51,879 bases of DNA from Polyangiales bacterium (lineage in GTDB: Bacteria > Myxococcota_A > Polyangia > Polyangiales > Ga0077539): NCBI GenBank assembly GCA_044376155.1, contig JBILLI010000001.1:1-51879 (forward strand), read 5' to 3'. Each line of letters starts with the position of its first letter. Position 1 is the stretch's first letter. The translations under genes were made by a program, and so were the position numbers. Below are positions 28,457 to 45,725 of the stretch, piece after piece. The notes under the pieces were generated by a model. That model was not told the origin of the DNA. It saw only the letters and a program-made list of their open reading frames with translations, and did no database searches.

Positions 28457-28614
28457 CGCGACGGACATGTGAAGCGATTCCCCCGAGGCCTCGTCGGAGG
28501 GTCATCAGCGCGCCGCCGATGCGGGTCCCTTGCACCGATCGCGGCGGCGTTGTTCAACTGCGCGCGACGCGACCCCTTCGGGCGCGGCGAACGATCGTCG
28601 GAGGTACCTTCAGC

Positions 28615-30497: not shown

Positions 30498-31244
30498 ATG
30501 ATCATGGCGAAGGTGCAGTCGCCCCAGCTCGGTTACAACACCAACGTCCGCCACAAGGGCAAGCTGTTCCACATCCAGACCGAAGACTCGGGGGTGGCGC
30601 GGCCGCACATCATCACGCACCTCTTCGTCGACGGCGGGCGGATCCTCAAGTCGGTGAAGTCGAGCTACGCCGACTCGCTCGAGGAGGCCGACCTCATCGC
30701 CTACATCCGTCGGCGCATGCAGGAGCAGCACAAGGCGATGTTCGTCGCGCTCCGCGACGGAGAGTTCGACGCGCTGCTCGAACCCGCGGAGGTCCCGCCC
30801 ATCGCGGAGCCCATCGAGCCCCGCATCACCGCCCCGCCGCCACCGCCCGTGGAGGCGCCGACGATGCGCTCCCTCGCGCCGCCGCCGCGCTCCACCCTGA
30901 GCCCCGCGGCCGGCACGCCCACGCCCGCCGCCCGCGTCACGTCGTCGCGCTCCACGGGTAGCCTTCGCGCGACCGGGGCGCGCACGGCCGACGTCGCGGT
31001 CGCCGCGCGGGAGGTCCCGGCGGTGCCGGGCTCGCTGCTGCCTCCGCGGCTGCCTGCGGTGGAGCGGCCCCCGTCGAACCCGCCGGTGTTCAGCAACTCG
31101 ATGCGCTACACGGCGCCGCGCGTTGCCCCGCCGTCGCTGGTGCCGCCGCCGCGAGAGCGCGCGGGCGTCACGGAGCGCGTGGTGCGTGAGTCTTCGCTCA
31201 ACGAGCTCATCCTTGCGATGCTCGCTGAAGAGGTCCCAGGGTGA
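30498..31244 (+). CDS. Hypothetical protein: roughly 100-aa folded N-terminal domain plus Pro/Ala-rich disordered tail
   Basis: MIMAKVQSPQLGYNTNVRHKGKLFHIQTEDSG...HIITHLFVDGGRILKS. Coding-like GC3. I cannot name a family. Confidence 0.7.
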   Translation: MIMAKVQSPQLGYNTNVRHKGKLFHIQTEDSGVARPHIITHLFVDGGRILKSVKSSYADSLEEADLIAYIRRRMQEQHKAMFVALRDGEFDALLEPAEVPPIAEPIEPRITAPPPPPVEAPTMRSLAPPPRSTLSPAAGTPTPAARVTSSRSTGSLRATGARTADVAVAAREVPAVPGSLLPPRLPAVERPPSNPPVFSNSMRYTAPRVAPPSLVPPPRERAGVTERVVRESSLNELILAMLAEEVPG

Positions 31245-32073
31245 GCGCGACGCGCGCGTCGGTCCCACGGGACGCGCGCGGCGCGAGGCAGATGGCGCCG
31301 CCGAGGGACGCGGCGATGACCCCGAGGGTCCACAGGCCGCGGCTCGCGCGGTGGGGGCTGCGTCGCCACGTCGCGAGGCCGAGGGAGTCGCGCCACGCCG
31401 GCTCCACCCCCGGGCCGTCGTCGAGGACCCGCAGCACGAGGAATCCGTCGCTGACTTCGACCGAGGCCTGCGCCTCGACGCCGCCGCGTTGCAGCGCCTG
31501 CAGGGCGTTCTCAGCCAGGATCACCAGCGCGCTCTGCAGGGCATCTCCGCCCACCGTCGCGAGCTCGCCCGCGGGTTGATCGAAGCGCCAGCCAAACCCG
31601 TGACGCGCGTACTCCCGCTGGAGCGCGTGCTCGACCCGGTGGAGGCCGCCGGGGTCGTCGACGAGGCGGTCGCACACGCGCGGGAACCGCTCCGCGCGCA
31701 TCGATTGCACCGCGGCGAGGTCGTGGAGCAGGGACGCCGCCTCGCGCAGGTCGGGGTGGTCGAGGTCGGCGATCTCCACGCGCCCCAGCGCGGCGCCGAG
31801 CGGCGCTTGCAGGTCGTGCACGAGTCGGCGCGACGCGTCGGCGGCGAGCTCCACGGAGCTGCGCTCGCGCGCGTGGTCCGTCGGCGGGTCGAGCGAGACC
31901 CGCCAGCGATCGTCGCGCACCGCACGCACCATCACGGCCTCGCCGTCGGTGACGGTGGCCGAGAGCACCAGCGCGCCGGGGCCCAGGGACTCCCACGCCG
32001 GGGGGATGCGTGACGCGACCCGCGCGCCGGGCGCGTCGCCGAAGGCGTCGACGAGGCACTGGGCCAGCGACAT
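31207..32073 (-). CDS. Soluble histidine kinase (short sensor region, HisKA plus HATPase_c)
   Basis: H-box LVHDLQAPLGAAL. ATPase boxes (ILAENALQAL, LDDGPGV). ATG at 32073 is only 7 nt after the giant gene's stop, with GGAGG inside that gene's last codons. Confidence 0.75.
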   Translation of the reverse strand: MSLAQCLVDAFGDAPGARVASRIPPAWESLGPGALVLSATVTDGEAVMVRAVRDDRWRVSLDPPTDHARERSSVELAADASRRLVHDLQAPLGAALGRVEIADLDHPDLREAASLLHDLAAVQSMRAERFPRVCDRLVDDPGGLHRVEHALQREYARHGFGWRFDQPAGELATVGGDALQSALVILAENALQALQRGGVEAQASVEVSDGFLVLRVLDDGPGVEPAWRDSLGLATWRRSPHRASRGLWTLGVIAASLGGAICLAPRASRGTDARVALTLGPLQRASQG

Positions 32074-32080
32074 GTGGGGC

Positions 32081-35000
32081 TCAGCCTCCGACGAACAGAC
32101 GGGGGTTCGCGGGTCGCGCCCAGGCCACGGTCACGCCGAAATCGCTGCACTGGGTGTCAGGCGCGTTGATCTGCTGCGGGTTCACGCTGATCGCCGAGGC
32201 GCCGCCGCGGTAGATGCGCACCGCGAAGCTCCCGCTGAACTCGCAGCCGGAGTCAGGAAAGCCCACGATCATGTCGTCGCGCAGGTCGCCGTTGGTGTCG
32301 CCCGCGGAGGCGACGGCGTCTCCGTGGGCCCATCCGCTGACCCGAATGTCCACCGACGTGGCGCCCGCGCCGGCGGCGCCGCCGCTGTAGACGCGGAGCA
32401 TGGTGCCCTGCGCCGCGACGACCACGTCGCCGTAGCCGTCGCCGTTCACGTCGTCGATGCCCGACGCGGCGGCGTCGTTGCTCGGGAGCGACTCGGTGTA
32501 GGTCCGCGCAGGCGACGTGGTCATGCCCGCGCTGCCGCCGTGGTGCACGTTGGTCACGTGGAGCCCGTTCTGCCCCACGCGAAAGAGCCAGGTCGCGACG
32601 ATGAGGTCGGCGCGGCCATCACCGTTCACGTCGCCCGCGCTGTTGATGTCGCGGATGTTCGCCAGCGGCACGTAGTTCGTCGCCCCCGTGTTGGCCCCGA
32701 GGAACACCGACCAGCCCGTGGTGGAGGTGACGGCCACGTCGGAGAGGTCGTCGTCGTTCACCGTGCCGAGGCCGCGCACGAGGGTGCCGAAGCCCGGCTG
32801 CGTCGAGGCGAGCGTGCGCGCCGGGGTCGTCGAGATGCCCCCCGCGGCGCCGGCGTAGACCAGCGCGCGCAGGGCGCGGTTGGCGCCCACGATGACGTCG
32901 CCGTAGCCGTCGCCGTCGGTGTCGCCCGCCCACGAGGCGCTGACGCCGAAGCCCCCGGTGTTGGGGTTGCTCAGGGTCGTGCGCGTCGGGCTCAGACCCG
33001 TCGACGCCCCCAGGAACACGTGCGCCTGCTCGCGAGTGCTCTCGGCGACGAGGAGGTCGCCGAAGCCGTCGCCGTTCACGTCGCCCGCGCTCGAAACGGT
33101 CGAGCCAAAGCGCCCGCCGCTGACGGCGCCGTTGAGCGTCAGGCTCGGCGCCGAGGGCGGACCATTGATCGAGCCGTAGTACACGTACACCCGGTCGATG
33201 TTCGGCGCGCCCACGACCACGTCGGCGATGCCGTCGCCGTTGAAGTCGGGCACCGTCCCGCGCGCGGTGGATCGCGTGGCGGTGCGCGCCCCCACGAAGA
33301 ACTCCCACACCGGCGACGCGAGCGTGCCCACGTTGGTCCCGACGCGGCCGTAGAGGCGCCAGAAGTAGACGCCCTGCGCGAGCGTCGTGGCGAGCGTGTA
33401 CGAGGTGCCCGTGAGGTCCTGCTGGGTGATCACCGTGGCGCACGCGCGGTCCTGGCACACCTGCAGGCGCACGCCGTCCACCGGCGCGGCGGCGGCGGCC
33501 CAGCGCAGCGTCGGACGCTGCGAGGTCACCCGCGAGGTCGACATCGGGAACAACGGTCGGGGCGCGGCGATGCGCGCGCACCCGCTCCCCGTGTCGTAGA
33601 ACCCTGCGCTGCAGACGTATCCGCACACGCTGTTCACGCACGTCGCCGAGCCGCCGCCGACCCGCGGGCAGACGTTGCCGCAGGCGCCGCAGTTCGAGAC
33701 GTTGCCCGTGAGGTTGAGCTCGCAGCCATTGGTCGCGCCGCCGTCGCAATTGCCCCAGCCGCTGTTGCAGGCGCCGAGCCCGCAGCGGCCCGAGGTACAC
33801 ACCGCCGCGGCGTTCGCGTAGGAGCACGCGTTGCCGCAGGCGCCGCAGTTCGTCGCGCTGGTGTTGGTGTTGGTCTCGCAGCCGTTGGCGGCGTTGTTGT
33901 CACAATTGCCGAAGCCCGTGAGGCACGCCGCGATCGCGCAGACCCCGGCGGCGCAGGCCGGCGTGGCGTTGGGCAGGCTGCACGCGTTGCCGCAGGCGCC
34001 GCAGTTCGACGCGCTGGTGCTCGTGCTGGTCTCGCAGCCGTTGGCCGCGTTGCCGTCGCAGTTGCCGAAGCCCGCGTTGCAGCTCCCCACGCCGCAGACG
34101 CCGGCGCTGCACGCCCCCGTGGCGTTCGCCGGGGCGCAGGGCAGGCCGCAGCCGCCGCAGTTCGACGCGCTGGTGTTGGTGCTGGTCTCGCAGCCGTTGG
34201 TCGCGTTGCCGTCGCAGTTGCCGAAGCCCGCGTTGCAGGCGAAGCCGCAGGTCGACTGGAGGCAGACCGCGGCGGCGTTGCTGCGCGGCGGGCACACCAC
34301 CCCGCAGCCGCCGCAGTGGGACGCGTTGCGGGTGGTGTCGACGCACACGTTGCTGCAGTTGGTGAGGCCCGCGCAGTCTCGCGTGCACACCCCCGACGCG
34401 CAGAAGAACCCAGTGGCGCAAGCGTTTCCACACGTGCCGCAGTTCGCCGCGCTGGTGCTCGTGCTGGTCTCGCAGCCGTTCGACGCGTTGCCGTCGCAGT
34501 TGCCGAAGCCCGCGTTGCAGCTCCCCACGCCGCAGGCGCCACCGGCGCAGGCCGGGGTGGCGTTGGGCACGGTGCAGGCGTTGCCGCAGGCGCCGCAGTG
34601 GCTGGCGCTGGTGCCGGTGTTGGTCTCGCACCCGTTCGACGCGCTGCCGTCGCAGTTGCCGAAGCCCGCGTTGCAGCTCCCCACGCCGCAGGCGCCCGAG
34701 GCGCAGGTGGGCGTGGCGTTCGCGAGCGCGCACGCGGCGGCGCAGCGCCCGCAGTGCGAGGGGCTGGTGAGCAGGTTGGTCTCGCAGCCGTTGGAAGGGA
34801 CGCCGTCGCAGTCGCCCCAGTTGGTCGCGCAGCTCAGCACCACGCACGCGCCGGCGCTGCAGCCCGGCACCGCGTTGGGCAGGGAGCACCGGGCCCCGCA
34901 GCCGCCGCAGTGGTTCACGTCGCCGCGCGTGTCGGTCTCGCAGCCGTTGGTGACGCTGCCGTCGCAGTTGCCCCACCCCGCGGCGCACGTGATGCCGCAG

Positions 35001-38000
35001 GCGCCGCCGCCGCACGAGGGCGCGCCGTTGACGGCGCTGCACGCGTTCGCGCAGCGGCCGCAGTGCGACACCGAGGTGCTGGTGCTGGTCTCGCAGCCGT
35101 TGGCCGCGTTGCCGTCGCAGTCGCCGAAGCCCGCGTTGCAGCTGGCCACGGTGCAGGCGCCCGCGCTGCAGCCCGCGACGCCGTTGGCCGCCGCGCAGCC
35201 CTGGCCGCACGCGCCGCAGTGCGACACCGCGGTGCGCACGTCGGTCTCGCAGCCGTTGGCCGCGCTGCCGTCGCAGTTGCCCCATCCCCCGCTGCAGGTG
35301 ATGCCGCAGACGCCCGCGGCGCAGGTCGCCGCGCCGTTGGTGGTGTTGCACGCGTTGCCGCAGGCGCCGCAGTGGGCGGTGGCGGCGCCGAGGTTCGTCT
35401 CGCAGCCGTTGGCCGCGTTGCCGTCGCAGTCGCCGAAGCCCACGTTGCAGCGAAAGCCGCACATGCCGCCGCCGCAGGTGGGGGACGCGTTGGCGCGGGC
35501 GGGGCACGCGGTGCCGCAGCCGCCGCAGTTCGCGGGGTCGGTTCGGAGGTCGAAGCACTGCCCGGCGCAGAAGGTCAGCCCCGTGCCGCAGACGTTGCCG
35601 CACGCGCCGCCCGAGCACACCATGCCGGTGGTGCAGCCGACGCCGCAGGCGCCGCAGTGCGCGTTCGACGTCCGCGTATCGGTCTCGCAGCCGTTGGTCG
35701 TGCTGCCGTCGCAGTTGCCGAAGCCGGCGCTGCAGCTCGCCACGGTGCACGCGCCGCCCGCGCAGCCCGCGACGCCGTTGGCGACGCTGCACGCACGCCC
35801 GCAGGCGCCGCAGCTTGACGGGGTCGCGCGCAGGTCGGTCTCGCACCCGTTGCGGGGGTCGCCGTCGCAGTCGCCGAAGCCCGCGCTGCAGCTCCCCACC
35901 CCGCACGCACCGGCCACGCAGGCGGCGGTGGCGTTGGGCACGCTGCACGCACGCCCGCAGGCGCCGCACTGCGCCGTCGCGGTGTTGGTGTTGGTCTCGC
36001 ATCCGTTGGCGGCGTCGCCGTCGCAGTCGCCGAAGCCCGCGTTGCACGACGCCACGCCGCAGCGCCCGCCCGCGCAGCTCGGCGCGCCGTTGGCCACCGC
36101 GCAGGAGCGGCCGCAGGCGCCGCAGCTCCCGGTGGAGGTGCCGGTGTTCGTCTCGCATCCGTTGGCGGCGTCGCCGTCGCAGTTCCCGAACCCCGACGCG
36201 CAGGTGATGCCGCAGGCGCCAGACGCGCAGGTGGCCGTGCCGTTCGCGCTGCTGCACGCGCGCCCGCAGGCGCCGCAGCTCGTGGGGGCGACGCGGAGGT
36301 CGACCTCGCAGCCGTTGGCGGGGTTGCCGTCGCAGTCGCCGAAGCCCGGGTTGCAGGCGGCCACGGTGCATCGCCCGGAGCCGCAGGCCGCCACCGCGTT
36401 GGGGAGGTTGCAGGCGCCTCCGCAGCGGCCGCAGTGCGCCGTCGCGGTGTTGGTGTTGGTCTCGCAGCCGTTGGCGACGTTGCCGTCGCAGTCGCCGAAG
36501 CCCGTCGCGCAGGTGATGGCGCAGGCCCCCGCGCGGCACGACGCGGCGCCGTTCGTCGAGGGGCAGGCGTTGCCGCAGCGGCCGCAGTGGGAGGGCGTCA
36601 CCCGCGTGTCGACCTCGCACCCGTTGCTGGGGTTGCCGTCGCAGTCGGCGAAGCCCGCGCTACACGACGCCACGCCGCAGCGGCCACCCGCGCAGGTGGC
36701 GGTGGCGTTGGGGAGGCTGCAGGCCGCGCCGCAGGCGCCGCAGTGCGGGGCAGCGGCGAGCAGGTCGGTCTCGCAGCCGTTGGCCTCGTTGCCGTCACAG
36801 TCTCCGCGGGTGGTGGGGGCGCACACCCGCGTCGACTCGCAGCGCCCCGCGGCGCAGCGCGCGCCCGCGTTGGGGAAGGAGCAGGCGGTGCCGCACGCGC
36901 CGCAGTGCAGGGTGTTGACCCGCGTGTCGACCTCGCAGCCGTTGGCCGCGTTCCCATCACAGTCGCCGAAGCCCGCGGCGCAGGTGATGGCGCAGGCCCC
37001 GGCGCTGCACGACGCCGCGCCGTTTGTCGAGGGGCAGGCGTTGCCGCAGCGGCCGCAGTGCGCGGGGGCGCTGCGGGTGTCGACCTCGCACCCGTTGCTG
37101 GGGTCGCCGTCGCAGTCGGCGAAGCCCGGGTTGCACGAGGCCACCCCGCAGCGCCCCGCGGCGCACGCGCCCACGGCGTTGGGCGGCGCGCAGGCCATGC
37201 CGCAGCCGCCGCAGTTGCGCGCGTCGGCGCGGGCGTCGACCTCGCAGCCGTTGGTGGGCGCGCCGTCGCAGTCGGCGTACCCGTCGGCGCACACCGGGCT
37301 GCAGCGCCCCGCGGCGCACACGGCGGATCCGTTGGCCGGGCGGTCGCAGCGGGTGGTGCAGGTGCCGCAGTGGTCGGCGTCGGTGCGGGTGTCGACCTCG
37401 CAGCCGTTGCGGTCGTCGAGGTCGCAGTTCGCGAATCCCGGCGCGCAGACCAGCGCGCAGCGCGCCTCGGCGCACGAGGCGGTGGCATTGGGCCCCAGGG
37501 GGCACGCCGCCCCGCACGCGCCGCAGTGCGACGCGCTCATCGCCAGGGTCACCTCGCAGCCGTTGGTGGCATCGCCGTCGCAGTCGGCCGCGCCCGCGTC
37601 GCAGCGGAGGCCGCAGGTGCCCTCGTCGCACACCGCGGCGCTGGCCGCCCCCGCGGGGCAGACGTTGTCGCAGCGGCCGCAGTGACGGGGATCGGAGGTG
37701 CGGTCGGTGCAGACGCCGGCGCAGAGGTCTGGCGAAGGGGCGTTGCAGACCGCGGCGCAGCGAAAGCGCGGGCCGGCGCCCGTGGACGGCGCGCAGAGCG
37801 GGGCCGGGGGCATGCAGCGGGTGCCGCAGGCGCCGCAGTTCGTGGGCAGGGAGAGGTCCTCTTCGCAGCCGTTGGCAGGGTCGCCGTCGCAGTCCGCGAA
37901 GGGCGCCTCGCAGACGAGGTCGCAGCGCCCGGCGGTGCAGGTGGCGCGGGCGTTCGCCGCCGACGGACACGCGGTGCCGCACGCGCCGCAGTGGTCCACC

Positions 38001-38455
38001 GAGGTCGCGGTGTCGGTCTCGCAGCCGTTGCGGTCATCGTTGTCGCAGTTGCCGCGCGCCGGGTCACAGACGACCCGACAGACCTGGCCCTCGACGCAGC
38101 GCGTGAAGGGGTTGATCACCCGGCAGTCGTAGTCGGCCACGCACTGCGGTCGACACTGCCCGTCGCGGGTGCAGATCTCGTTCGGTCCGCACTCCGAGGC
38201 GTAGCGGCAAGGCGCGGGCGCGCCGGCGGGCACACAGATTCGACGGCTCGAGACCGGGTCGACGTGGCAGGTGCCGCCCGCGCAGTCGGCGTCGGTCATG
38301 CACGCCGTTCGGCAGCTCCCCGCGGCGCAGACCAGCGGCCGCTCGCAGTCCGAGTCGAAGGTGCACTGCAGGCCCCCTCCCGGCGGCGCGGTGCAGGCCA
38401 CCGCCGCGAGCATCACCCCAACGATCCAGGCCCGAACCAGCACGACCCCACGCAT
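32081..38455 (-). CDS. Giant (2124 aa) secreted Cys-rich repeat protein with C-terminal seven-blade FG-GAP/integrin-alpha-like propeller
   Basis: Signal peptide with possible lipobox (MLAAVAC). About 26 modules C-x2-GF[GA][DN]CD[GN]-x3-NGCE-x9-CGxCGxxC by my count. A fibronectin/Ig-like segment follows, then seven Ca-binding-type repeats. Confidence 0.9.
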   Translation of the reverse strand: MRGVVLVRAWIVGVMLAAVACTAPPGGGLQCTFDSDCERPLVCAAGSCRTACMTDADCAGGTCHVDPVSSRRICVPAGAPAPCRYASECGPNEICTRDGQCRPQCVADYDCRVINPFTRCVEGQVCRVVCDPARGNCDNDDRNGCETDTATSVDHCGACGTACPSAANARATCTAGRCDLVCEAPFADCDGDPANGCEEDLSLPTNCGACGTRCMPPAPLCAPSTGAGPRFRCAAVCNAPSPDLCAGVCTDRTSDPRHCGRCDNVCPAGAASAAVCDEGTCGLRCDAGAADCDGDATNGCEVTLAMSASHCGACGAACPLGPNATASCAEARCALVCAPGFANCDLDDRNGCEVDTRTDADHCGTCTTRCDRPANGSAVCAAGRCSPVCADGYADCDGAPTNGCEVDARADARNCGGCGMACAPPNAVGACAAGRCGVASCNPGFADCDGDPSNGCEVDTRSAPAHCGRCGNACPSTNGAASCSAGACAITCAAGFGDCDGNAANGCEVDTRVNTLHCGACGTACSFPNAGARCAAGRCESTRVCAPTTRGDCDGNEANGCETDLLAAAPHCGACGAACSLPNATATCAGGRCGVASCSAGFADCDGNPSNGCEVDTRVTPSHCGRCGNACPSTNGAASCRAGACAITCATGFGDCDGNVANGCETNTNTATAHCGRCGGACNLPNAVAACGSGRCTVAACNPGFGDCDGNPANGCEVDLRVAPTSCGACGRACSSANGTATCASGACGITCASGFGNCDGDAANGCETNTGTSTGSCGACGRSCAVANGAPSCAGGRCGVASCNAGFGDCDGDAANGCETNTNTATAQCGACGRACSVPNATAACVAGACGVGSCSAGFGDCDGDPRNGCETDLRATPSSCGACGRACSVANGVAGCAGGACTVASCSAGFGNCDGSTTNGCETDTRTSNAHCGACGVGCTTGMVCSGGACGNVCGTGLTFCAGQCFDLRTDPANCGGCGTACPARANASPTCGGGMCGFRCNVGFGDCDGNAANGCETNLGAATAHCGACGNACNTTNGAATCAAGVCGITCSGGWGNCDGSAANGCETDVRTAVSHCGACGQGCAAANGVAGCSAGACTVASCNAGFGDCDGNAANGCETSTSTSVSHCGRCANACSAVNGAPSCGGGACGITCAAGWGNCDGSVTNGCETDTRGDVNHCGGCGARCSLPNAVPGCSAGACVVLSCATNWGDCDGVPSNGCETNLLTSPSHCGRCAAACALANATPTCASGACGVGSCNAGFGNCDGSASNGCETNTGTSASHCGACGNACTVPNATPACAGGACGVGSCNAGFGNCDGNASNGCETSTSTSAANCGTCGNACATGFFCASGVCTRDCAGLTNCSNVCVDTTRNASHCGGCGVVCPPRSNAAAVCLQSTCGFACNAGFGNCDGNATNGCETSTNTSASNCGGCGLPCAPANATGACSAGVCGVGSCNAGFGNCDGNAANGCETSTSTSASNCGACGNACSLPNATPACAAGVCAIAACLTGFGNCDNNAANGCETNTNTSATNCGACGNACSYANAAAVCTSGRCGLGACNSGWGNCDGGATNGCELNLTGNVSNCGACGNVCPRVGGGSATCVNSVCGYVCSAGFYDTGSGCARIAAPRPLFPMSTSRVTSQRPTLRWAAAAAPVDGVRLQVCQDRACATVITQQDLTGTSYTLATTLAQGVYFWRLYGRVGTNVGTLASPVWEFFVGARTATRSTARGTVPDFNGDGIADVVVGAPNIDRVYVYYGSINGPPSAPSLTLNGAVSGGRFGSTVSSAGDVNGDGFGDLLVAESTREQAHVFLGASTGLSPTRTTLSNPNTGGFGVSASWAGDTDGDGYGDVIVGANRALRALVYAGAAGGISTTPARTLASTQPGFGTLVRGLGTVNDDDLSDVAVTSTTGWSVFLGANTGATNYVPLANIRDINSAGDVNGDGRADLIVATWLFRVGQNGLHVTNVHHGGSAGMTTSPARTYTESLPSNDAAASGIDDVNGDGYGDVVVAAQGTMLRVYSGGAAGAGATSVDIRVSGWAHGDAVASAGDTNGDLRDDMIVGFPDSGCEFSGSFAVRIYRGGASAISVNPQQINAPDTQCSDFGVTVAWARPANPRLFVGG
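32084..33253 (-). repeat. Seven FG-GAP-type repeats (beta-propeller) at the C-terminus of the giant protein
   Basis: DFNGDGIADVVVGAP, GDVNGDGFGDLLVAE, GDTDGDGYGDVIVGA, VNDDDLSDVAVTS, GDVNGDGRADLIVAT, DDVNGDGYGDVVVAA, GDTNGDLRDDMIVGF. Confidence 0.8.
33572..38068 (-). repeat. Coding tandem array of roughly 47-aa NGCE/CGxCG Cys-rich modules
   Basis: NGCE[TV][DNS] followed 9 aa later by [HNSQ]CGxCG recurs about 26 times. Interspersed are modules of the type seen in the 27-2531 gene (e.g. CGTGLTFCAGQCFDLRTDPANCGGCGTAC). Confidence 0.85.
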
Positions 38456-38565
38456 GGCTCACCCCTACCCCGACGGGCTCGCGCGGTCCACCCGCGCCCG
38501 ACAGGTGAGGAGAGTTCGCACGGGACCGTTGAAGGGAGATACAGTGTCCCTTCGTCTTGTACCTC

Positions 38566-39573
38566 ATGCGCCCCCTGCGTCCCCTCATCGCCGCCGCGGT
38601 CCTTGCCCTCGGTGGCGCCGTCTCGGCGCAAGATCCCTCCCTCCCCGAGAACCCGTACCAGCGCTCGCCCGACGACGTCGCGCACACCAACGCGGCGGCG
38701 CCCGGGAGCGCGACCCTCCTCGCGGCGGTGCCCGACCCCACGCGGCGACGGTACGCGGGGGTGTCGGAAGAGGACATCATCCGCGCGTTGCGCGCGCAGC
38801 CGGTGCTGGCGATGCGCGAGGTGGGCAACACGTCGATCAATCTCCGGTGCGACCTCGGGGGCGACATCGACGGGGCCTACAAGCCCTCCGAGACGCTGCA
38901 CCTCGAGCATTTCCGCGGTGAGATCGGGGCCTTTCGGGTCGCGCAGCTCCTCGGCGTCGAGCGCGTGCCCCCCGCGGTGCTGCGGCGCTTTCGCCGCGAC
39001 GAGCTCCCCAGCGGCGCGGCGCTCTCGCGGGTGCGCTTTCGCGAGGGGGTCTCGTGGGGCGCGATGATCTACTGGGTGCCGGTGCTGCGCTCGGCGCAGA
39101 TCTACTCGGGGCCCACCCTCGACCGCTGGACCCGGCTGCTCACCCAGGGCGAGGCCATCCCCGACGGCGAGCGCAACCGCGCCGAGGACGTGTCGACGGT
39201 GATCGCCTTCGACTTCCTCATCGGCAACTGGGACCGCTGGCACGGCACCAACACCCTGCAAGACCGCGACGGCCGCCTGGTGTTTCGCGACAACAACGGC
39301 GCGTTCTACGAACCCATGCCGCGGGGCCGCTACGAGATCATCCTCGCGTGGTTCCAGCGCGTGCAGCGGTTCTCCCGGTCGTTCGTGGCGCACGCCCGCG
39401 GGCTCACCCTCGAGGCCCTGCGCACCAGCATCGCCGACGACGCCCTGGCCGATGAGCCGCTGCTCAACGACGCCCAGCTCCGCGGGGTGCTGCGCCGACG
39501 CGACACGCTGGTGCAGTACGTCGACGCGCTGGTGTCGATCCACGGCGAGGCCGAGGTCTACGCGTTCCCCTGA
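38566..39573 (+). CDS. Secreted FAM20/Four-jointed-like protein kinase-fold protein
   Basis: Signal peptide MRPLRPLIAAAVLALGGAVSAQD. The blocks GAYKPSE, GEIGAFRVAQLLGVERVPPAVLRRF, AFDFLIGNWDRWHG and VFRDNNGAF parallel human FAM20C blocks (recalled) [45 protein letters not shown] and IHLDNGRGF. ATG 38566 is preferred over TTG 38557. Confidence 0.65.
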   Translation: MRPLRPLIAAAVLALGGAVSAQDPSLPENPYQRSPDDVAHTNAAAPGSATLLAAVPDPTRRRYAGVSEEDIIRALRAQPVLAMREVGNTSINLRCDLGGDIDGAYKPSETLHLEHFRGEIGAFRVAQLLGVERVPPAVLRRFRRDELPSGAALSRVRFREGVSWGAMIYWVPVLRSAQIYSGPTLDRWTRLLTQGEAIPDGERNRAEDVSTVIAFDFLIGNWDRWHGTNTLQDRDGRLVFRDNNGAFYEPMPRGRYEIILAWFQRVQRFSRSFVAHARGLTLEALRTSIADDALADEPLLNDAQLRGVLRRRDTLVQYVDALVSIHGEAEVYAFP

Positions 39574-40310
39574 TCGAGCGCGGCGAGGTCGAGGCGGTGG
39601 GTGCGCAGCGTGGGGGGCGCGCCGCGCACGCCCCAGGCCACGGAGAGGGTGTGCTCGGGCGTGGGGTCATGGCGCGCGAACCACCAGCGCTCGGCCTGGT
39701 CGTCGAAGCCTGGCGCGAAGGCCACGCCCCGCGGCGTCTCGTCGTCGTCGACGTGAAACGCGAAGCGCTGCAAGGGGATCGCGAGCCCCAGGGCCCGGGC
39801 CTTGATGTACGCCTCCTTGAGGGTCCAGAGGGTGAAGAAGCGCGGCCGCTGGCGGTGCGCGGGCAGCGCGCGCAGCGCATCGAGCTCCGCGGGGGCGAAG
39901 TACCGATGGGCGACGGCCACGGTGTCTCCCCGCCGCGGGTGCCACTCGACGTCACACCCCGCGTCGGCGCTCCGTGAGACGACCATCGCGAGCATCCCGC
40001 GGGTGTGCGAGAGGTTGAAGTGCAGCGGGCGCGGGAGCGATGGGGCGGCGACGAAGGGGCGACCGTGCGCGTTGGGCGAGAAGCGCCACGCGTGCGGCGC
40101 GACGTCGGCGTAGTGCGACAAGACGTGGCGCACCATGCGGCGCGCGCGCAGGTGCTCGTCGCGGGCGCGGGGGTGGTTCATCGCGTCGTGCCGCGCGCGC
40201 TCCTCGGGGGAGAGCGCGGTGAGGCCGTGGGTGAGCTCCCGCGCGTCGCAGGGCTCCGGCGCGTGCAGCAGCCAGAGGTCGAGGTGGTGGTCGTCGAGGG
40301 GCAAACGCAT
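39558..40310 (-). CDS. Sfp-type 4'-phosphopantetheinyl transferase
   Basis: 250 aa. FNLSHTRGMLAMVV, GCDVEW, FTLWTLKEAYIKARALG (W/KEA motif). Confidence 0.85.
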   Translation of the reverse strand: MRLPLDDHHLDLWLLHAPEPCDARELTHGLTALSPEERARHDAMNHPRARDEHLRARRMVRHVLSHYADVAPHAWRFSPNAHGRPFVAAPSLPRPLHFNLSHTRGMLAMVVSRSADAGCDVEWHPRRGDTVAVAHRYFAPAELDALRALPAHRQRPRFFTLWTLKEAYIKARALGLAIPLQRFAFHVDDDETPRGVAFAPGFDDQAERWWFARHDPTPEHTLSVAWGVRGAPPTLRTHRLDLAALDQGNA

Positions 40311-40401
40311 GGGCGCGGCGTCGCCGAGAGAGACCCCATCGAGGGCCCCTCGTCAACCGTCGCCCCTGGACGCCGCCGCGACGCCCCGGCACCCTCGCGC
40401 G

Positions 40402-41160
40402 GTGCGCGATCCTGTGACCCTGGTCCCCATCGGTGTGATGCGCACCGAGGCGCGGGAGAAGTCCGAAGCCGCGCGGCAGCCCTACGCCGCCGACGGGGCC
40501 CGCGGGGTCATTGAACTCTTCCCCGGACACGGCTTCGAAGACGCCCTCTGCGACCTCGACCGCTGGACCCACGTCTGGGTGCTCTTCGTCTTTCACCGCA
40601 ACGACTCGTGGCGCCCCAAGGTGCTGCCGCCGAGGAGCCGCGGGGTGAAGCGCGGGGTCTTCGCGACGCGCTCGCCCCACCGCCCGAACCCCCTGGGCAT
40701 GAGCGTGTTGAAGCTCCTGCGGGTCGAGGGTCTGTCGGTGCACGTCGAGGGCGTGGACCTCCTCGACGGCACCCCCGTGGTCGACCTCAAGCCCTACGTG
40801 CCCTTCGTCGACGCGATCCCCGACGCCAGCACGGGGTGGATCGCCCAGGACCCCGAGGCCCCCTGGTTTGTCGCGTGGTCCGAGCGCGCGGCGGTGCAGC
40901 GCGACTGGCTCGCGGCCCACGGCGAGGACCTCACCGCCCCGGTGGAGCGCGCGCTGCGGTTGGGACCGGCGCCCCACGCCTACCGCCGCATCCGCGCGAC
41001 CCCCGACGGCCACGAGCTCGCGGTGCGCGACTGGCGGGTAGACTTCACCGCGACGGAGCGCACGCTCACCGTCGCGGCGATCCGCTCGGGCTACCGCACC
41101 TCAAGGCGCGACGAGGCCCCGGCGCTGCACCGCGCCTACGCCGATCACTTCGTTCGGTGA
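40402..41160 (+). CDS. trmO: tRNA (m6t6A37) methyltransferase TrmO (YaeB/TsaA-like)
   Basis: VTLVPIGVMRTE..., THVWVLFVFHRN, RSPHRPNPLGMSVLKLL, LLDGTPVVDLKPYVP. GTG at 40402. The exact start is uncertain. Confidence 0.8.
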   Translation: MRDPVTLVPIGVMRTEAREKSEAARQPYAADGARGVIELFPGHGFEDALCDLDRWTHVWVLFVFHRNDSWRPKVLPPRSRGVKRGVFATRSPHRPNPLGMSVLKLLRVEGLSVHVEGVDLLDGTPVVDLKPYVPFVDAIPDASTGWIAQDPEAPWFVAWSERAAVQRDWLAAHGEDLTAPVERALRLGPAPHAYRRIRATPDGHELAVRDWRVDFTATERTLTVAAIRSGYRTSRRDEAPALHRAYADHFVR

Positions 41161-41203: not shown

Positions 41204-43900
41204 TCAGCGCAGCCCGAAGCCGCCGCCGAGCACGAACAGGCCCGAGCCGTGGCTCAGCGTGGGAGACGTGATGCCGAGCTCGCGGCCCGTGGGCAGGCCG
41301 TAGGTCGACAGCGAGCTCGGGATGGCGAAGCCCGGGATGGGGATCGCGGGCAGCGCGTCGTTGAGCGAGCGCGTGAGCAGGTCCTCGACGATGAGCCGCA
41401 CGGCGCGGGTGAGCGCGGTGCGCTCGGTGCCGGTGATCGACTGGCTCTCCAGCGAGATGTGCAGCTCGTCGAGGGTGATCCCGCCGAAGCGCAGGTCGTT
41501 GCCCATGAGGGTCACGGCGAGCGACGCCCGCGCGCCCACCGACACCGCGAAGGGCTGCGACGCGCCGGGCAGCGGGATCGACGCCGTGAGCCCACCGAGG
41601 TCGACCCCCATGCGGCCGTCGGTGCGGAGCTGCGCCACCGGCGGGAGCGCCGTGTCGATGCGCACGCGGGTGCCCTGCGGAAAGACGTCCCCGAGGCTGC
41701 CGACCGAGATGCTCGCGTCGAAGAACCCGCCGCGCCACAGCGCGTGGAGGGCCCCGTTGAGCACCGCCGGCTGCAGCGTCACGGTGGCGGGGCGGGTCAG
41801 CGCGACGGTGTCGCTCACCGCGGGCGGCAGGGCCACGCCGCGGCTGGTGGTGCCGCGCACGGTCATCGCGGTGAAGCGCGTGCCCAGGCCCAGCGACAGC
41901 CGCGAGGTGTTCGCGCTGAGCGACGAGAGCCCGAGGCCGAACTGCAGCGGGAGGGTGCCCATCCCATCGAGCCGCGGGACGTTGAAGCTCGCGCCGAGGC
42001 TGGAGACGTCGAGCCCGCCGAGCACGCCGTCGAGCACGCGGGTGAAGTTGTCGCTCACGTAGCTCCGCAGGGCGTCAGACACGAGGTTGCGCACGATGCC
42101 CTGCGCGAGCGAGGCCACGACGTTCACGATGACCCCGGTGAGGCCGCTGAAGTCGGTGCTGATCTGCCCCACGCTCACGGTGGTGGAGTTGGGTCGCACC
42201 ACCGCGCGCGGTCGCCCGCCCGAGGCGCTGAGGTCGAAGATCACCCCGACATCCACGGAGCGCACGGTGACCCACCCCGAGGTGCTGAGCGTGCCCGAGA
42301 TGCGCAGGCGCACGCGCACGTTCTCGAAGCGCACGTTGGCGCGCAGGCCGCCGTCGACCAGGGTCAGCGCGGTGGTGTTGGGCCCGTTGATCTCGCTGCC
42401 GTCGTAGTCGACCCGCGAGCGGAAGATGCACGAGCACCCCACGAAGGGCACGCAGACCTCCTGATCGCAGGAGTTCTTCAGCGGGTTCGCGGCGCGCAGC
42501 GCGGTGTCGAGCTGGGTGCGCAGCCCGGTGCTGTTCACCACGGTCTGGAGCACGTCGTCGAGCGAGGTGATGGGCGACACGGGGTCGCCGTCGTCGAGCG
42601 CCGACTGCGCGAGCCGCAGCGACACGCCGTTGTCGAGCAGCGAGGTCTCGGCGAGCCAGCGGTCCGACACGAGGTACGTGCAGGTGCGGCTGTTCTCCAG
42701 GCCGTTGGTGTCGGTGGCCTCGACGTCGACGAAGACCATGCCGAAGCGCGAGGGCACCGTGGCGGTGAACGTGCCGTCGTTGCCCGGGGTCACCGCCGCG
42801 CCGTTCACCGTCAGCGAGCGCACCCCCGAGGTGTCGCGCAGCGTGCCGCGGATCATCAGCGGCGCGCCCGGCGCGTGGTTCACCATGGTGACGTTGCCGG
42901 GCACCGTGCACGAGATCGCCGGGCCGCTGGAGTCGACCGTGAACGAGGTCGACTCCGAGAGGGCGACGCCCCCCTCGGTCATCCCTGTGACCCGCACGGT
43001 GATGGTGTAGCGCCCCTCCTCGGCGTAGCTGTAGACCCCGGGGCGGATGTTCATCCCCTGGGTCGCGGTGGCGTACTCCAGCGCGGGCATTTCGACGCGG
43101 TTGCCGAAGCGGTCGGTCACCGTGGCGACGACCTCGACCTCCTGGCCCGTGCGGTACAGCGGCTGATCGGGCGAGCGCGCGATGACCAGCCGCGCGGGCA
43201 GCGCCGCAGAGACCGTCAGCGTCGCCGGATCTCCCTGCGCCCCAGGCACTTCGCAGCGGACCATGAAGCTCCCGCTGCGCTCCGCGCGCACGGCGTTGCC
43301 GGTGACCGCCACGCCGTCGCCCGAGGGGGTCACGGCGACCCGCGGCGTCGCGTCGGTGATGGCGTTGCCCTCGGCGTCGGTCACCGCGCAGGTGGCGGTG
43401 GCGCTCTCGCCCGCGGTCATCATCGCCCGGTCGAGGGTGGTGGTGACCCGCGCGGGCGCGCCGGCGTCGACGCGAATCTCGGCGGGGGTGGCGTCGCTGA
43501 GCGACCCGAGGGCGCAGCGCGCGGTCACCGTGCCCACGCGCACCGCGGTGTACGTCGACCCGCTCGCGCGCACCGCGTCGGCGGGCGCGAAGGTCAGCGT
43601 CGGGGTCATGCCCGCGGGGGGCGCCACGTCCATGCCCGCGGCGTTGCGCAGCACGCAGCGCGCCATGATGACCTCGCCCGCCCGCACCCGCGTGGGCGCC
43701 TCGGTCTCGATCTGCGTCGCGGTGAGGTCAGGCCCGGTGTCGGCCGGACCCGCGTCAACCTCCTTCGGACCGGTGTCTGCGACCGCGACGTCGGCCGACC
43801 CGGCGTCGCCGGGGGTGTTGTCGATCACGGTCTCGCCCGACGTGTTGCTGCACGCGGCGACGAGGCAAAGCCCCAGGAGCGCAAGAGAGAGACGCGTCAT
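41204..43900 (-). CDS. Large lipoprotein: N-terminal Ig-like domains plus C-terminal tandem BPI/LBP/CETP-like (TULIP) domain (tentative)
   Basis: Lipobox LGLCLVAAC. Three similar roughly 90-aa beta-rich repeats (..ARCALG../..ATCAVTD../..VRCEVPG..). The C-terminal 480 aa shows a BPI-like order of motifs (see finding). The CDS itself is well supported by GC3 and length. Confidence 0.8.
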   Translation of the reverse strand: MTRLSLALLGLCLVAACSNTSGETVIDNTPGDAGSADVAVADTGPKEVDAGPADTGPDLTATQIETEAPTRVRAGEVIMARCVLRNAAGMDVAPPAGMTPTLTFAPADAVRASGSTYTAVRVGTVTARCALGSLSDATPAEIRVDAGAPARVTTTLDRAMMTAGESATATCAVTDAEGNAITDATPRVAVTPSGDGVAVTGNAVRAERSGSFMVRCEVPGAQGDPATLTVSAALPARLVIARSPDQPLYRTGQEVEVVATVTDRFGNRVEMPALEYATATQGMNIRPGVYSYAEEGRYTITVRVTGMTEGGVALSESTSFTVDSSGPAISCTVPGNVTMVNHAPGAPLMIRGTLRDTSGVRSLTVNGAAVTPGNDGTFTATVPSRFGMVFVDVEATDTNGLENSRTCTYLVSDRWLAETSLLDNGVSLRLAQSALDDGDPVSPITSLDDVLQTVVNSTGLRTQLDTALRAANPLKNSCDQEVCVPFVGCSCIFRSRVDYDGSEINGPNTTALTLVDGGLRANVRFENVRVRLRISGTLSTSGWVTVRSVDVGVIFDLSASGGRPRAVVRPNSTTVSVGQISTDFSGLTGVIVNVVASLAQGIVRNLVSDALRSYVSDNFTRVLDGVLGGLDVSSLGASFNVPRLDGMGTLPLQFGLGLSSLSANTSRLSLGLGTRFTAMTVRGTTSRGVALPPAVSDTVALTRPATVTLQPAVLNGALHALWRGGFFDASISVGSLGDVFPQGTRVRIDTALPPVAQLRTDGRMGVDLGGLTASIPLPGASQPFAVSVGARASLAVTLMGNDLRFGGITLDELHISLESQSITGTERTALTRAVRLIVEDLLTRSLNDALPAIPIPGFAIPSSLSTYGLPTGRELGITSPTLSHGSGLFVLGGGFGLR

Positions 43901-43955: not shown

Positions 43956-45725
43956 TCAGGCCCCGGCGCGCGTGAGCGCGTAGGAGAGCGTCACGCAGCG
44001 CAGGCCCAGGATCCACACGCGGTGCTCGGCGCGCAGAGACTCGCCGTCGGCCCACACGTCGATGCGCTCTCGCAGCGGCAGCCGCAGCGCGCCCAGCGGT
44101 GTCACCAGGAACATCCCCGCGTCGTCGCCCCTGCACTCGCTCGTGAGCGAGAGCCCGCCCGCCCGCGCGCCCTGCTCGAAGCGCAGCAGCCCCAGCAATG
44201 AAGCGAAGGGCAGCGGGAACGCGCAGGAGAGGTACATCCCGCCGCGGCCGGGCTGCGCGGCGTAGGCGGCGACGTAGTTCGCCCGGGTGTTCTCCCCCGC
44301 GCCGTACGCCCGCACATACCCCCGCGCCCCGGCCCGGCCGTCCCGCGCGTCGTCGAGCGCGAAGAGCCGCGTGTGCACGGTCTCCCCGTGCTCATCACGC
44401 AGCGGGAGCTCGAGCTGCCCCAGGAGCCTTCGCGCCGCGCGACGAAACAGCGCCGCGGGCGCACGGAAGGGCGCGTGCCACACCGCCTCGGCCCGCAGCG
44501 CGTGCACCGCCGTGCGCTCGTAGAACGCCCTCACCCGGGGGTCTACCCGCGCGGGGTCGAAGCCCTCTCGCGCGAAGTCGTCGAGGTCATCGAGCTGCCC
44601 GCGCACCGGCCGCGAAGAGTCCACCGCGCCCACGCGGTCGAAGAAGTCGACCCCCACGAAGCCCCGCGCAGAGAGCCTTGGGCGGGTGAAGCGAACGACC
44701 CCGTGGGCGGCGGGCGGACCGCGGAGCGCGAAGGCGAGCAGCCCACACAGGGCGAAGCCCAGGGCGTTGGCCGCGCCGTGCACCGCGGCCATCAGGTGAA
44801 AGGAGATGCGCCCGCCCGGCGCCGCGCGCCCGGCCGAGCCGGTCATCGCGAAGGCCACGGCGAAGCCCATGGAGAGCACCAGCGAGAGGCCCGCGACGCC
44901 CAGCAGCGCGCCGCTCACGCGGGCCCACCCCGTCTCAGACCGCAGTCGACGCAGGCCCTCTCGCAGGAGCAACCACGCCCCCACCAGCATCCCCGCGCCG
45001 AGGACCACCGCGGACGGAGACTCCAGCGCCCGCGAAACGGTGATCCCGACGGCGACGAGGGGCACACCCGCCATGACCACCACCGCAGCGACGCCGTACC
45101 AGACCGCGAGCGCGCCCCGAGCCGCGACCCCATCGGGGAACAGTGACAGCCCGAGGAGCCCGAGCACCACCGGCGCGGCGAAGCCTGCGTAGTGAAAGTG
45201 CGCGGCGGTGTAGAGCACGATGGGCTCGAAGAAGCCCATGGGCGAGACGCCCGCCCGCGACGCGAGGAGCCAGGCGCCGCCCACCGGGAGGTAGAGGTGA
45301 CCGAGGTCCACCGCGAGGAGCGCGAGGGGGGCCGCGCCGCGCACCGCGAGCCGCTGCCAGCCCCGCAGCGCGACGGCGAGCGTCGCCAACATCCACACGC
45401 CCGCGAGCACGCCCGCGAGCGCGCCCACGGCAGGCACGAAGCTCGCGAGGCCGAAGGGCGCGGCCACCGCGAGCAGCCGTTGCAGCGCGCGCGCCTCGCG
45501 GCCCTCGTCGCCCATCGCCCTGCACGCGACCGACACGCCGAGGGGCACGACGCACGCGACCGCGAGCGCCACCAGCGCCTCGCCCGGGTCACGGAACACC
45601 CCCAGCGGAAGCATCGCGGCCCAGAGCAGCGCGCCCAGCGCCGCGGCGTGTTCCCCGAAGCGCTCCCTCGAAATCGCTCGATCTCTCTGCGGTGCAACGA
45701 GTTCGGGTGACACGCGGGATCCCAC
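43956..45725 (-). CDS. Polytopic membrane protein with soluble C-terminal domain (possibly YndJ-like; tentative)
   Basis: 589 aa. The N-terminal 330 aa hold about 9 hydrophobic helices, and the C-terminal 250 aa are soluble. GTG start at 45725. The family call is from weak recollection only. Confidence 0.65.
   Translation of the reverse strand: MGSRVSPELVAPQRDRAISRERFGEHAAALGALLWAAMLPLGVFRDPGEALVALAVACVVPLGVSVACRAMGDEGREARALQRLLAVAAPFGLASFVPAVGALAGVLAGVWMLATLAVALRGWQRLAVRGAAPLALLAVDLGHLYLPVGGAWLLASRAGVSPMGFFEPIVLYTAAHFHYAGFAAPVVLGLLGLSLFPDGVAARGALAVWYGVAAVVVMAGVPLVAVGITVSRALESPSAVVLGAGMLVGAWLLLREGLRRLRSETGWARVSGALLGVAGLSLVLSMGFAVAFAMTGSAGRAAPGGRISFHLMAAVHGAANALGFALCGLLAFALRGPPAAHGVVRFTRPRLSARGFVGVDFFDRVGAVDSSRPVRGQLDDLDDFAREGFDPARVDPRVRAFYERTAVHALRAEAVWHAPFRAPAALFRRAARRLLGQLELPLRDEHGETVHTRLFALDDARDGRAGARGYVRAYGAGENTRANYVAAYAAQPGRGGMYLSCAFPLPFASLLGLLRFEQGARAGGLSLTSECRGDDAGMFLVTPLGALRLPLRERIDVWADGESLRAEHRVWILGLRCVTLSYALTRAGA

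Follow-up and report, generated by a model that had tools for sequence, protein, structure and literature searches.

Organization of the kinase locus

The DNA analyzed in this study (51,879 nucleotides (nt) of contig JBILLI010000001.1, assembly GCA_044376155.1, from a Polyangiales bacterium; referred to below as the window) carries a gene encoding a predicted exported kinase related to the FAM20 kinases of the animal secretory pathway. The product, referred to as the window kinase (335 amino acids, aa), is recorded as a 'hypothetical protein', and its 90% cluster includes MFO0625454.1, a protein of a Polyangiales metagenome-assembled genome (MAG). A gene for a giant Cys-rich-repeat/FG-GAP protein is located upstream, in divergent orientation. 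The features of the locus are summarized in Table 1.

Table 1. Features of the kinase gene, its product and the divergent neighbour (residue numbers refer to the window kinase).
Feature	Position	Strand	Basis
Gene of the predicted exported FAM20-like kinase	38566..39573	+	Open reading frame of 335 codons; stop included in the coordinates
Predicted Sec signal peptide, residues 1-21 (MRPLRPLIAAAVLALGGAVSA, cleavage before Q22)	38566..38628	+	Sequence inspection
Pro/Ala-rich linker of low model confidence, residues 22-60, with LPENPY	38629..38745	+	Local model confidence, alignment
FAM20-like kinase domain, residues 61-335 (~275 aa)	38746..39570	+	Local model confidence mostly >90, profile, Foldseek
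K106, predicted ATP-binding Lys of 'YKP', aligned with Lys of FAM20C 'FKP'	38881..38883	+	Alignments
E114-E119 (EHFRGE), spacing as E213/E218 (ERHNAE) of C. elegans Fam20	38905..38922	+	Alignments
Catalytic-loop block DFLIGNWDRWHGTN (D216, N221, predicted catalytic D223, R224, N229)	39211..39252	+	Aligned with FAM20C
Predicted metal-binding D242 in DNNG, aligned with DNGR (FAM20C) and DNAK (FAM20B)	39289..39300	+	Alignments
Divergent intergenic region between kinase and giant genes (110 bp)	38456..38565		Giant-gene ATG at 38455, minus strand
Gene of the Cys-rich-repeat/FG-GAP protein (2124 aa; context only)	32081..38455	-	Translation, Pfam FG-GAP matches

The open reading frame (ORF) of the window kinase begins with an ATG and has a G+C content at third codon positions (GC3) of 0.94, which is equal to that of the other real genes of the window (overall G+C content 73-75%). 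A TTG located three codons 5' of this ATG is a possible alternative start, but the called proteins of close relatives start with MRP, as does the window kinase. The N-terminus of the product (MRPLRPLIAAAVLALGGAVSA, followed by QD) carries positively charged residues and a hydrophobic segment and ends in the cleavage motif V-S-A. A first-pass annotation of this DNA, made from the letters alone, had proposed a 335-aa ORF with a signal peptide at this position, and the sequence bears out both.

The predicted signal peptide is followed by a linker, in which the mean predicted local distance difference test score (pLDDT) of the AlphaFold2 (AF2) model falls to 47-74 (residues 21-60), with the minimum at residues 31-50. 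Its length differs among relatives in the family alignment, and a P.NP[YF] motif was found, one to three times per linker, in 49 of 252 relatives. In the window kinase this motif is represented by LPENPY (residues 26-31; positions 38641-38658), and it was also noted in relatives P0008-P0039. A role in docking or anchoring is conceivable.

Homology to FAM20 kinases

The window kinase was compared with the 177,635 distinct sequences of the PDB. A single-sequence phmmer search yielded five matches, all of them to FAM20 proteins, with FAM20A at the top (E=1.5e-5). A family profile was then derived from an alignment (A1) of 51 of the 95 relatives described below, which was also the source of the AF2 model. 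This profile gave six matches, exclusively to FAM20A, FAM20B and FAM20C (E 1.8e-16 to 8.2e-8), including FAM20A (1.8e-16), human FAM20C (4.9e-16), hydra FAM20B (3.3e-15), zebrafish Fam20C1 (8.1e-13) and C. elegans Fam20 (8.2e-8). The match to human FAM20C spans profile positions 57-319, i.e. both lobes of the kinase domain. The match to FAM20A (a secretory pseudokinase; PDB 5wrr), the best one in both searches, lies mainly in the C-lobe.

The sole Pfam match of the window kinase is to PF06702 (Fam20C; E=7.6e-4, 19.6 bits), in the C-lobe only. When the 51 family members were scanned one by one, 17 matched the same model at E<0.01 (best 1.4e-6), and relative P0033 has a precomputed PF06702 match. 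At the same threshold, 24 of the 51 matched the FAM198/GASK1 model PF15051 (best 2.7e-6), for which the Pfam scan of the window kinase itself gave no match; besides these two, essentially no other family was found. The PF15051 matches of the relatives indicate FAM20-like kinases in the wider sense rather than GASK1 in particular. No solved structure of FAM198/GASK1 or of a Four-jointed kinase appeared among the PDB sequence or fold matches.

The AF2 model of the window kinase has a mean pLDDT of 87.4 and a predicted template-modelling score of 0.82, with the first ~55 residues poorly modelled. In a Foldseek search of the PDB with this model, ranks 1-27 were occupied by chains of FAM20A, FAM20B and FAM20C (E 4.4e-12 to 3e-9), with a template-modelling score (TM) of ~0.6, normalised to the full query including the ~55 disordered residues. 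The phmmer, profile and fold searches all place FAM20 first, in agreement with the initial suggestion of a FAM20C homologue. That suggestion had been based on five sequence blocks, all of which were aligned as claimed by HMMER and BLASTP: (i) AYKP with ALFKPMK of FAM20, (ii) EHFRGEIGAFRVAQLLGVERVPPAV with its FAM20 counterpart, (iii) FDFLIGNWDRWH with the FAM20 catalytic loop, (iv) RDNNGAF with LDNGRGF and (v) PLLNDAQLRGVLRRRDTLVQYVDALV, the C-terminal helix, with the corresponding FAM20 helix.

The chains following FAM20 in the Foldseek results belong to type II phosphatidylinositol 4-kinases (PI4KII) alpha and beta (E 4.6e-8 and weaker, TM 0.4-0.5), and then to kinases resembling phosphatidylinositol 3-kinase (PI3K). 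The NCBIfam scan of the window kinase gave a single, insignificant match, to TIGR03843 (SCO1664 family; E=0.073). Both results would suit a lipid or small-molecule kinase, akin to PI4KII or to SCO1664-like proteins, whose likeness to FAM20 reflects a common atypical fold only. We consider this improbable, since all significant sequence matches are to FAM20 or FAM198, no PI4KII or PI3K sequence was matched in Pfam or the PDB, FAM20 structures surpass PI4KII by four orders of magnitude in Foldseek E-value, and the TIGR03843 score is 12.4 bits against a cut-off of 172.4. A non-protein acceptor would in any case be allowed for in a FAM20-type kinase, FAM20B itself being a sugar kinase. Taken together, the profile, the predicted fold and the aligned catalytic residues establish the window kinase as a genuine homologue of the FAM20-type kinases of the secretory pathway.

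Conservation of the catalytic residues

Residue conservation was counted in an alignment of 276 relatives. The position of K106 is occupied by Lys in 251 of them and by Arg in a further 22; E119, the Glu of helix C, is unchanged in 273 and the predicted metal-binding D242 in 274. Within the catalytic loop, D216 and R224 are invariant (276/276), and N221 (275/276), D223 (272/276) and N229 (273/276) are nearly so. K106, E119, D223 and D242 all align with their counterparts in both FAM20C and FAM20B.

In the animal enzymes a second acidic residue pairs ionically with the Lys (E213 in C. elegans Fam20, ceFam20; Asp152 in hydra FAM20B), and a Gln at the ceFam20 E213 position is part of the reason why FAM20A is a pseudokinase (PMC5865150). 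FAM20A, with this Gln, binds ATP in an inverted manner, whereas the window kinase has Glu (E114) at this position together with all of the other catalytic residues, and its own clade keeps E114 acidic. The conservation pattern is that expected of an active enzyme under purifying selection, and from it we infer catalytic activity.

Comparison with animal and bacterial kinases

FAM20C (human, zebrafish and C. elegans; PDB 5yh3, 5yh0 and 4kqa) has the same kinase fold as that predicted for the window kinase, and the profile match extends over both lobes. The two have in common (i) the FKP Lys, (ii) the AEIAAF Glu, (iii) the FDFLxGNxDR catalytic loop, (iv) the metal-binding Asp of DN and (v) the C-terminal helix, and both enter an export route via an N-terminal signal.

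The window kinase differs from FAM20C in being reduced to a minimal core. The loop between the Lys and the Glu comprises 7 residues, compared with ~21 in FAM20C (the family profile is ~13 shorter), and it is at the site of this missing loop that FAM20C carries D/N-F-F-Y-F-S-D and FAM20B its sugar-binding Y-E-G-Y loop. The family profile also lacks ~25 residues of the Cys-rich N-lobe insertion of FAM20C and ~16 residues ahead of the C-lobe. The FAM20 disulfide pattern consists of four conserved bonds (PMC5865150). The window kinase has neither these bonds nor the C-x-Y-Y-C motif of FAM20C; none of the four is possible because its domain contains a single Cys. Among 252 relatives, the domain contains no Cys in 142 and one in 78. 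The residue following the catalytic DR is also changed, the DRHH of FAM20C corresponding to DRW (W225) in the window kinase; this position is occupied by Trp in 200 of the 276 relatives and by Phe in 56. The third residue after the metal-binding Asp is G245, as opposed to Lys in FAM20B and Arg in FAM20C.

FAM20B, a glycosaminoglycan xylosylkinase (hydra Fam20, PDB 5xom/5xoo), was matched by the family profile almost as strongly as FAM20C, with ~25% identity. FAM20B is a monomer and is considered to represent the ancestral state in animals (PMC5865150). T114 of its G-x-T-Q/S loop is kept as T89 in the window kinase, but the remainder of the pocket that holds galactose-xylose is changed: Q115 is replaced by S90, H301 by W225 and K321 by G245, and Y148-E-G-Y151 is absent. 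Xylose-kinase specificity of the window kinase cannot be inferred from the FAM20B pocket. More generally, its putative acceptor is not one that can be read from FAM20B or FAM20C, because the specificity positions differ and just T89 is common to them. Because it scores below the Pfam cut-off and lacks the N-lobe insertion, the disulfide bonds and the specificity residues of animal FAM20, the window kinase is classed here as a representative of a bacterial FAM20-like kinase branch and not as a FAM20 orthologue.

The atypical kinase folds of two bacterial kinases, CotH (from the spore coat of Bacillus) and HipA, fall into the same broad group. Neither kinase has a signal peptide for export, their sites of action being the cytoplasm or the mother cell. 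Both are absent from the PDB sequence matches and from the 50 best Foldseek matches of the window kinase, and the HipA_2 model was touched by one of the 51 family members (E 0.0096). In a kinase classification, CotH and HipA are placed near FAM20 (PMC9758233).

Export signals of the family

Among relatives with a complete N-terminus, 225 of 252 have a signal-peptide-like sequence, as scored by hydrophobicity and the presence of a cleavage motif, and the family consensus of the hydrophobic segment ends in 'A-x-A-Q'. About 25 members, mostly of the clade that is 52-62% identical to the window kinase (relatives P0010-P0029, loci L005-L012), have a twin-arginine (Tat)-like SRRxLLALGLGA sequence, and a distant clade has a lipobox, as in the homologue of Labilithrix luteola DSM 27648 (LSALALAAC). 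The presence of three predicted types of export signal (Sec, Tat-like and lipoprotein) within one family argues strongly that the kinase domain works outside the cytoplasm. The first-pass annotation had described the protein as a minimal, exported form of FAM20, and this description, a bare kinase core with a predicted export signal, is supported; most of the relatives likewise have a predicted export signal.

Distribution and evolution

A search of 5.8 billion proteins identified 95 relatives of the window kinase (33-93% identity); every one with a source name is annotated as 'hypothetical'. In a profile search of 1.84 billion entries, 2549 cluster representatives (50% identity) were matched at E<=1e-3, 1074 at E<=1e-10 and 393 at E<=1e-30, and the best 150 of the 2549 are all strong and bacterial. 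When one genome per species was considered (185,579 species), 148 stretches were found to encode a relative. All counts of loci, taxonomy and neighbourhood given here refer to the 80 listed of these 148 stretches.

All 80 loci originate from Myxococcota (Polyangiales, Polyangiaceae, Sandaracinaceae, Labilithrix, and MAGs labelled Myxococcales or Deltaproteobacteria), and the named carriers among them all belong to Polyangia. The closest genome locus among the matches listed, L001 of the Polyangiales MAG ABC2.114, encodes a kinase of 79% identity. Eighteen assemblies contribute two loci each, with one copy 50-79% and the other 42-47% identical to the window kinase, a pattern of sequence identities that is best read as a long-standing duplication. 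A cultured carrier is also available, namely L. luteola DSM 27648 (chromosome CP012333), whose homologue (L052, 7788-8882) shows 37% identity; no exact match to its protein, taken with three candidate starts, was found in the protein collection.

A neighbour-joining tree was constructed from 213 columns, with 157 bacterial representatives (<62% identity) and the sequences of human FAM20C, zebrafish Fam20C1 and hydra FAM20B, the animal sequences being rebuilt from HMMER alignments. The tree is unrooted and distance-based, without an outgroup. The three animal sequences share one long branch (1.09), and the mean pairwise distance between bacterial members is 1.31 (maximum 2.36), compared with a mean of 2.46 between bacterium and animal, so that distances within the bacterial family come close to those separating it from animals. 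Judged from these sequence distances, the analysis excludes a recent transfer of the kinase from animals. Transfer or ancient origin was a question raised with the first-pass annotation, and the tree settles it in part: recent acquisition from animals is excluded, but no direction of transfer can be given because the tree has no outgroup and is only distance-based.

A recent acquisition had some appeal, in that FAM20 is regarded as an animal family and myxobacteria are predators that secrete many proteins; such a protein might be a mimic effector acting in the secretory pathway of a eukaryotic host or prey. In addition to the separate long branch of the animal sequences, several features make this scarcely credible. 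The identity of the window kinase to human FAM20C and hydra FAM20B is ~24% (206 aligned columns), against 49% between those two in the same comparison. Divergence within the bacterial family is deep and wide-ranging, and many of its lineages contain paralogues. The GC3 of the gene fits the host genome, and the eukaryote-specific insertion and disulfides are absent.

FAM20 has been reviewed as an animal family (PMC7948968), a structural and evolutionary study of it searched animal genomes only (PMC5865150), and a kinome survey describes the FAM20 cluster as 'eukaryotic- or Metazoa-specific' (PMC9758233). The literature agrees, in this respect, with the premise of the first-pass annotation that FAM20 is regarded as essentially metazoan. 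A phylogenomic preprint of May 2026 includes FAM20B, in one line, among possible Myxococcota-derived eukaryotic genes; the bacterial proteins are not described there. In a search of the literature on FAM20 in connection with bacteria, myxobacteria or CotH we found no characterization of the bacterial proteins, this one-line mention being the sole link. The remark in the first-pass annotation that no characterized FAM20-type phosphorylation outside the cytoplasm is known from bacteria has to be modified to this extent: Myxococcota relatives of FAM20 have already been glimpsed in print.

We put forward only tentatively the wider idea that the FAM20-like proteins of Polyangia are active in phosphorylating proteins or glycans outside the cytoplasm (in the periplasm, at the cell surface or in the matrix) and that they represent the prokaryotic source lineage of the eukaryotic secretory-pathway kinases FAM20, Four-jointed and GASK1. 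If this were true, a bacterial 'minimal FAM20' would be the form from which the Golgi casein kinase arose.

Proposed activity of the window kinase

We propose that the window kinase is reduced to a bare FAM20-type core which would be catalytically competent. Its Sec signal peptide would carry it across the cytoplasmic membrane, and its site of action would be the periplasm, the cell surface or the medium. There it would most likely use a nucleotide as phosphate donor (probably ATP, together with Mn2+ or Mg2+) and phosphorylate a hydroxyl group of an extracytoplasmic macromolecule, which could be either a protein Ser/Thr or a glycan sugar. It is a member of a large and old family of Myxococcota (Polyangia) with, in many lineages, at least two long-standing paralogues per genome. 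We regard this mode of action, with a protein or glycan outside the cytoplasm as acceptor, as probable. The analysis shows the homology, the predicted fold, the conserved catalytic residues, the export signals and the size and distribution of the family; that phosphate is actually transferred, from which donor and in which compartment, we infer.

Several observations weigh against this proposal: (i) the Fam20C (PF06702) match anticipated by the first-pass annotation was obtained, but its score of 19.6 bits is below the gathering score of 26.8, (ii) position 114 is acidic (E or D) in just 109 of the 276 relatives, (iii) the signal peptide was called by eye and with a crude heuristic, (iv) tblastn and de novo ORF clustering of the 80 loci revealed no family-wide conserved gene partner, the synteny being clade-specific only, and (v) ATP is generally considered to be absent from the periplasm of Gram-negative bacteria, which bears both on the donor of the phosphate and on where the kinase would act. 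Furthermore, some proteins of kinase fold with an intact catalytic set use the nucleotide for another chemistry, such as AMPylation (SelO) or glutamylation (SidJ; both cited in PMC7948968).

The variability of position 114 and the existence of atypical kinase folds with other chemistries would also be consistent with a kinase fold that does not transfer phosphate, i.e. a pseudokinase or scaffold like FAM20A, which is the best single-sequence PDB match, or an enzyme of another nucleotide chemistry (AMPylation, glutamylation). The near-invariance of K106, E119, D223, N229 and D242 in the 276 relatives, and the Glu of the window kinase at the position where FAM20A has Gln, make this explanation unlikely, and phosphotransfer to an extracytoplasmic acceptor is the reading that we retain.

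FAM20 kinases make most of the secreted phosphoproteome of animals and control proteoglycan synthesis. To our knowledge, no extracytoplasmic phosphorylation of proteins or glycans of the FAM20-like kind has been characterized in a Gram-negative bacterium. The present data add to this supposedly animal or eukaryotic family a large, deep bacterial branch with intact catalytic residues and predicted export, and make extracytoplasmic phosphorylation in a Gram-negative bacterium, including the puzzle of its phosphate donor, amenable to testing. If the kinase is active outside the cytoplasm, the question arises of where its nucleotide donor comes from. With ~275 residues and neither disulfides nor glycans, the protein provides a pared-down version of the FAM20 core for study and should be easy to express, and L. 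luteola DSM 27648 provides a practical entry for genetics. The family also supplies concrete sequences with which to address the question of whether eukaryotic FAM20B came from Myxococcota. These proteins are likely to come as a surprise to the secretory-kinase field, tempered by the absence of a functional clue and by the recent mention in the preprint.

Neighbouring genes and the divergent giant protein

The giant protein encoded upstream of the kinase gene consists of ~26 tandem Cys-rich modules (NGCE...CGxCG; 12% Cys and 15% Gly) followed by C-terminal FG-GAP repeats, and its N-terminus is signal- or lipoprotein-like (…MLAAVAC). Besides the FG-GAP part, Pfam recognized in it only a weak Stig1-like stretch. 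The divergent spacer had been reported correctly in the first-pass annotation. It aligns with the corresponding spacer of L001 at 81% column identity, and a promoter and terminator scan of positions 38300-39800 found nothing, including no sigma-70-like promoter.

The first-pass annotation had named the giant protein, or surface polysaccharide, as a candidate substrate of the kinase, with a common control region for the two genes. A functional pair of this kind, in which the kinase would specifically phosphorylate the giant protein or a linked polysaccharide, is consistent with the divergent arrangement of the two genes 110 bp apart, its retention in L001 along with much of the spacer, and the predicted export signals of both products. 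Moreover, Cys-rich repeat proteins are encoded within 8 kb of the kinase gene in 7 of the 80 loci according to tblastn (in 7 loci and the window according to ORF clustering). These proteins may, however, simply be common in such genomes, and the pairing is kept in the nearest relative only (79% identity), as in ordinary synteny. The giant protein contains no S-x-E sites, compared with a mean of 2.7 after shuffling, a weak test given that the window kinase lacks the FAM20C specificity elements. We rate the giant protein low as a substrate because the case for it comes from two closely related genomes in which the genes are adjacent; the pairing is not supported and should not steer experiments.

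Ten neighbours of the kinase in the window were compared with the 80 loci by tblastn. The giant protein, a 248-aa protein and a protein with a HATPase_c domain recur, in L001 only. Other clades have other neighbours. In the clade of 52-62% identity, the kinase gene is followed, on the same strand, by genes for a sigma54-type response regulator and a sensor histidine kinase of ~800 aa (~nine loci). In the Polyangiaceae/Labilithrix clade, an alpha/beta hydrolase gene lies directly upstream of the kinase gene (~16 bp in most loci), in Sandaracinaceae an acyl-CoA dehydrogenase gene is located upstream, and the clade of the kinase paralogue has different neighbours again. A conserved neighbourhood as a route to the substrate was rejected, the synteny being clade-specific only.

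Several further ORFs were noted in the window. Antisense to the giant gene lies an ORF of 1284 aa (33831-37685, plus strand; GC3 0.97; rich in Ala, Pro, Gln and Leu), a shadow ORF attributable to the high third-position G+C content of the giant gene, which could be mis-called. The HATPase_c protein (288 aa; 31207-32073, minus strand), which resembles the ATPase of histidine kinases (E 2e-5), begins 8 nt past the end of the giant gene on the same strand, and the two genes may be co-transcribed; the same arrangement with the giant gene is found in L001, where the protein shows 44% identity.

Downstream, a gene for an Sfp-type 4'-phosphopantetheinyl transferase (39558-40310, minus strand) is convergent with the kinase gene, the final 16 bp of which it overlaps; tblastn found no recurrence of this transferase next to the kinase in the 80 loci. 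It is followed by a TrmO-domain ORF (40135-41160, plus strand) which, as called, overlaps the 5' end of the transferase gene by 176 bp. The true start of this ORF is probably located further downstream, because the TrmO domain begins only at residue 113. The next two genes on the minus strand encode a protein of 898 aa that matches Glucodextran_B and MG2 weakly (41204-43900) and a YndJ-like membrane protein (43956-45725; E 3e-46); neither is conserved beside the kinase in any related locus. On the other side of the giant gene, a 445-aa protein (28519-29856, plus strand) contains an FGE-sulfatase (formylglycine-generating-enzyme) domain (E 2.6e-44). L030 and L021 encode homologues of this protein close to the paralogue of the kinase, which is probably a coincidence.

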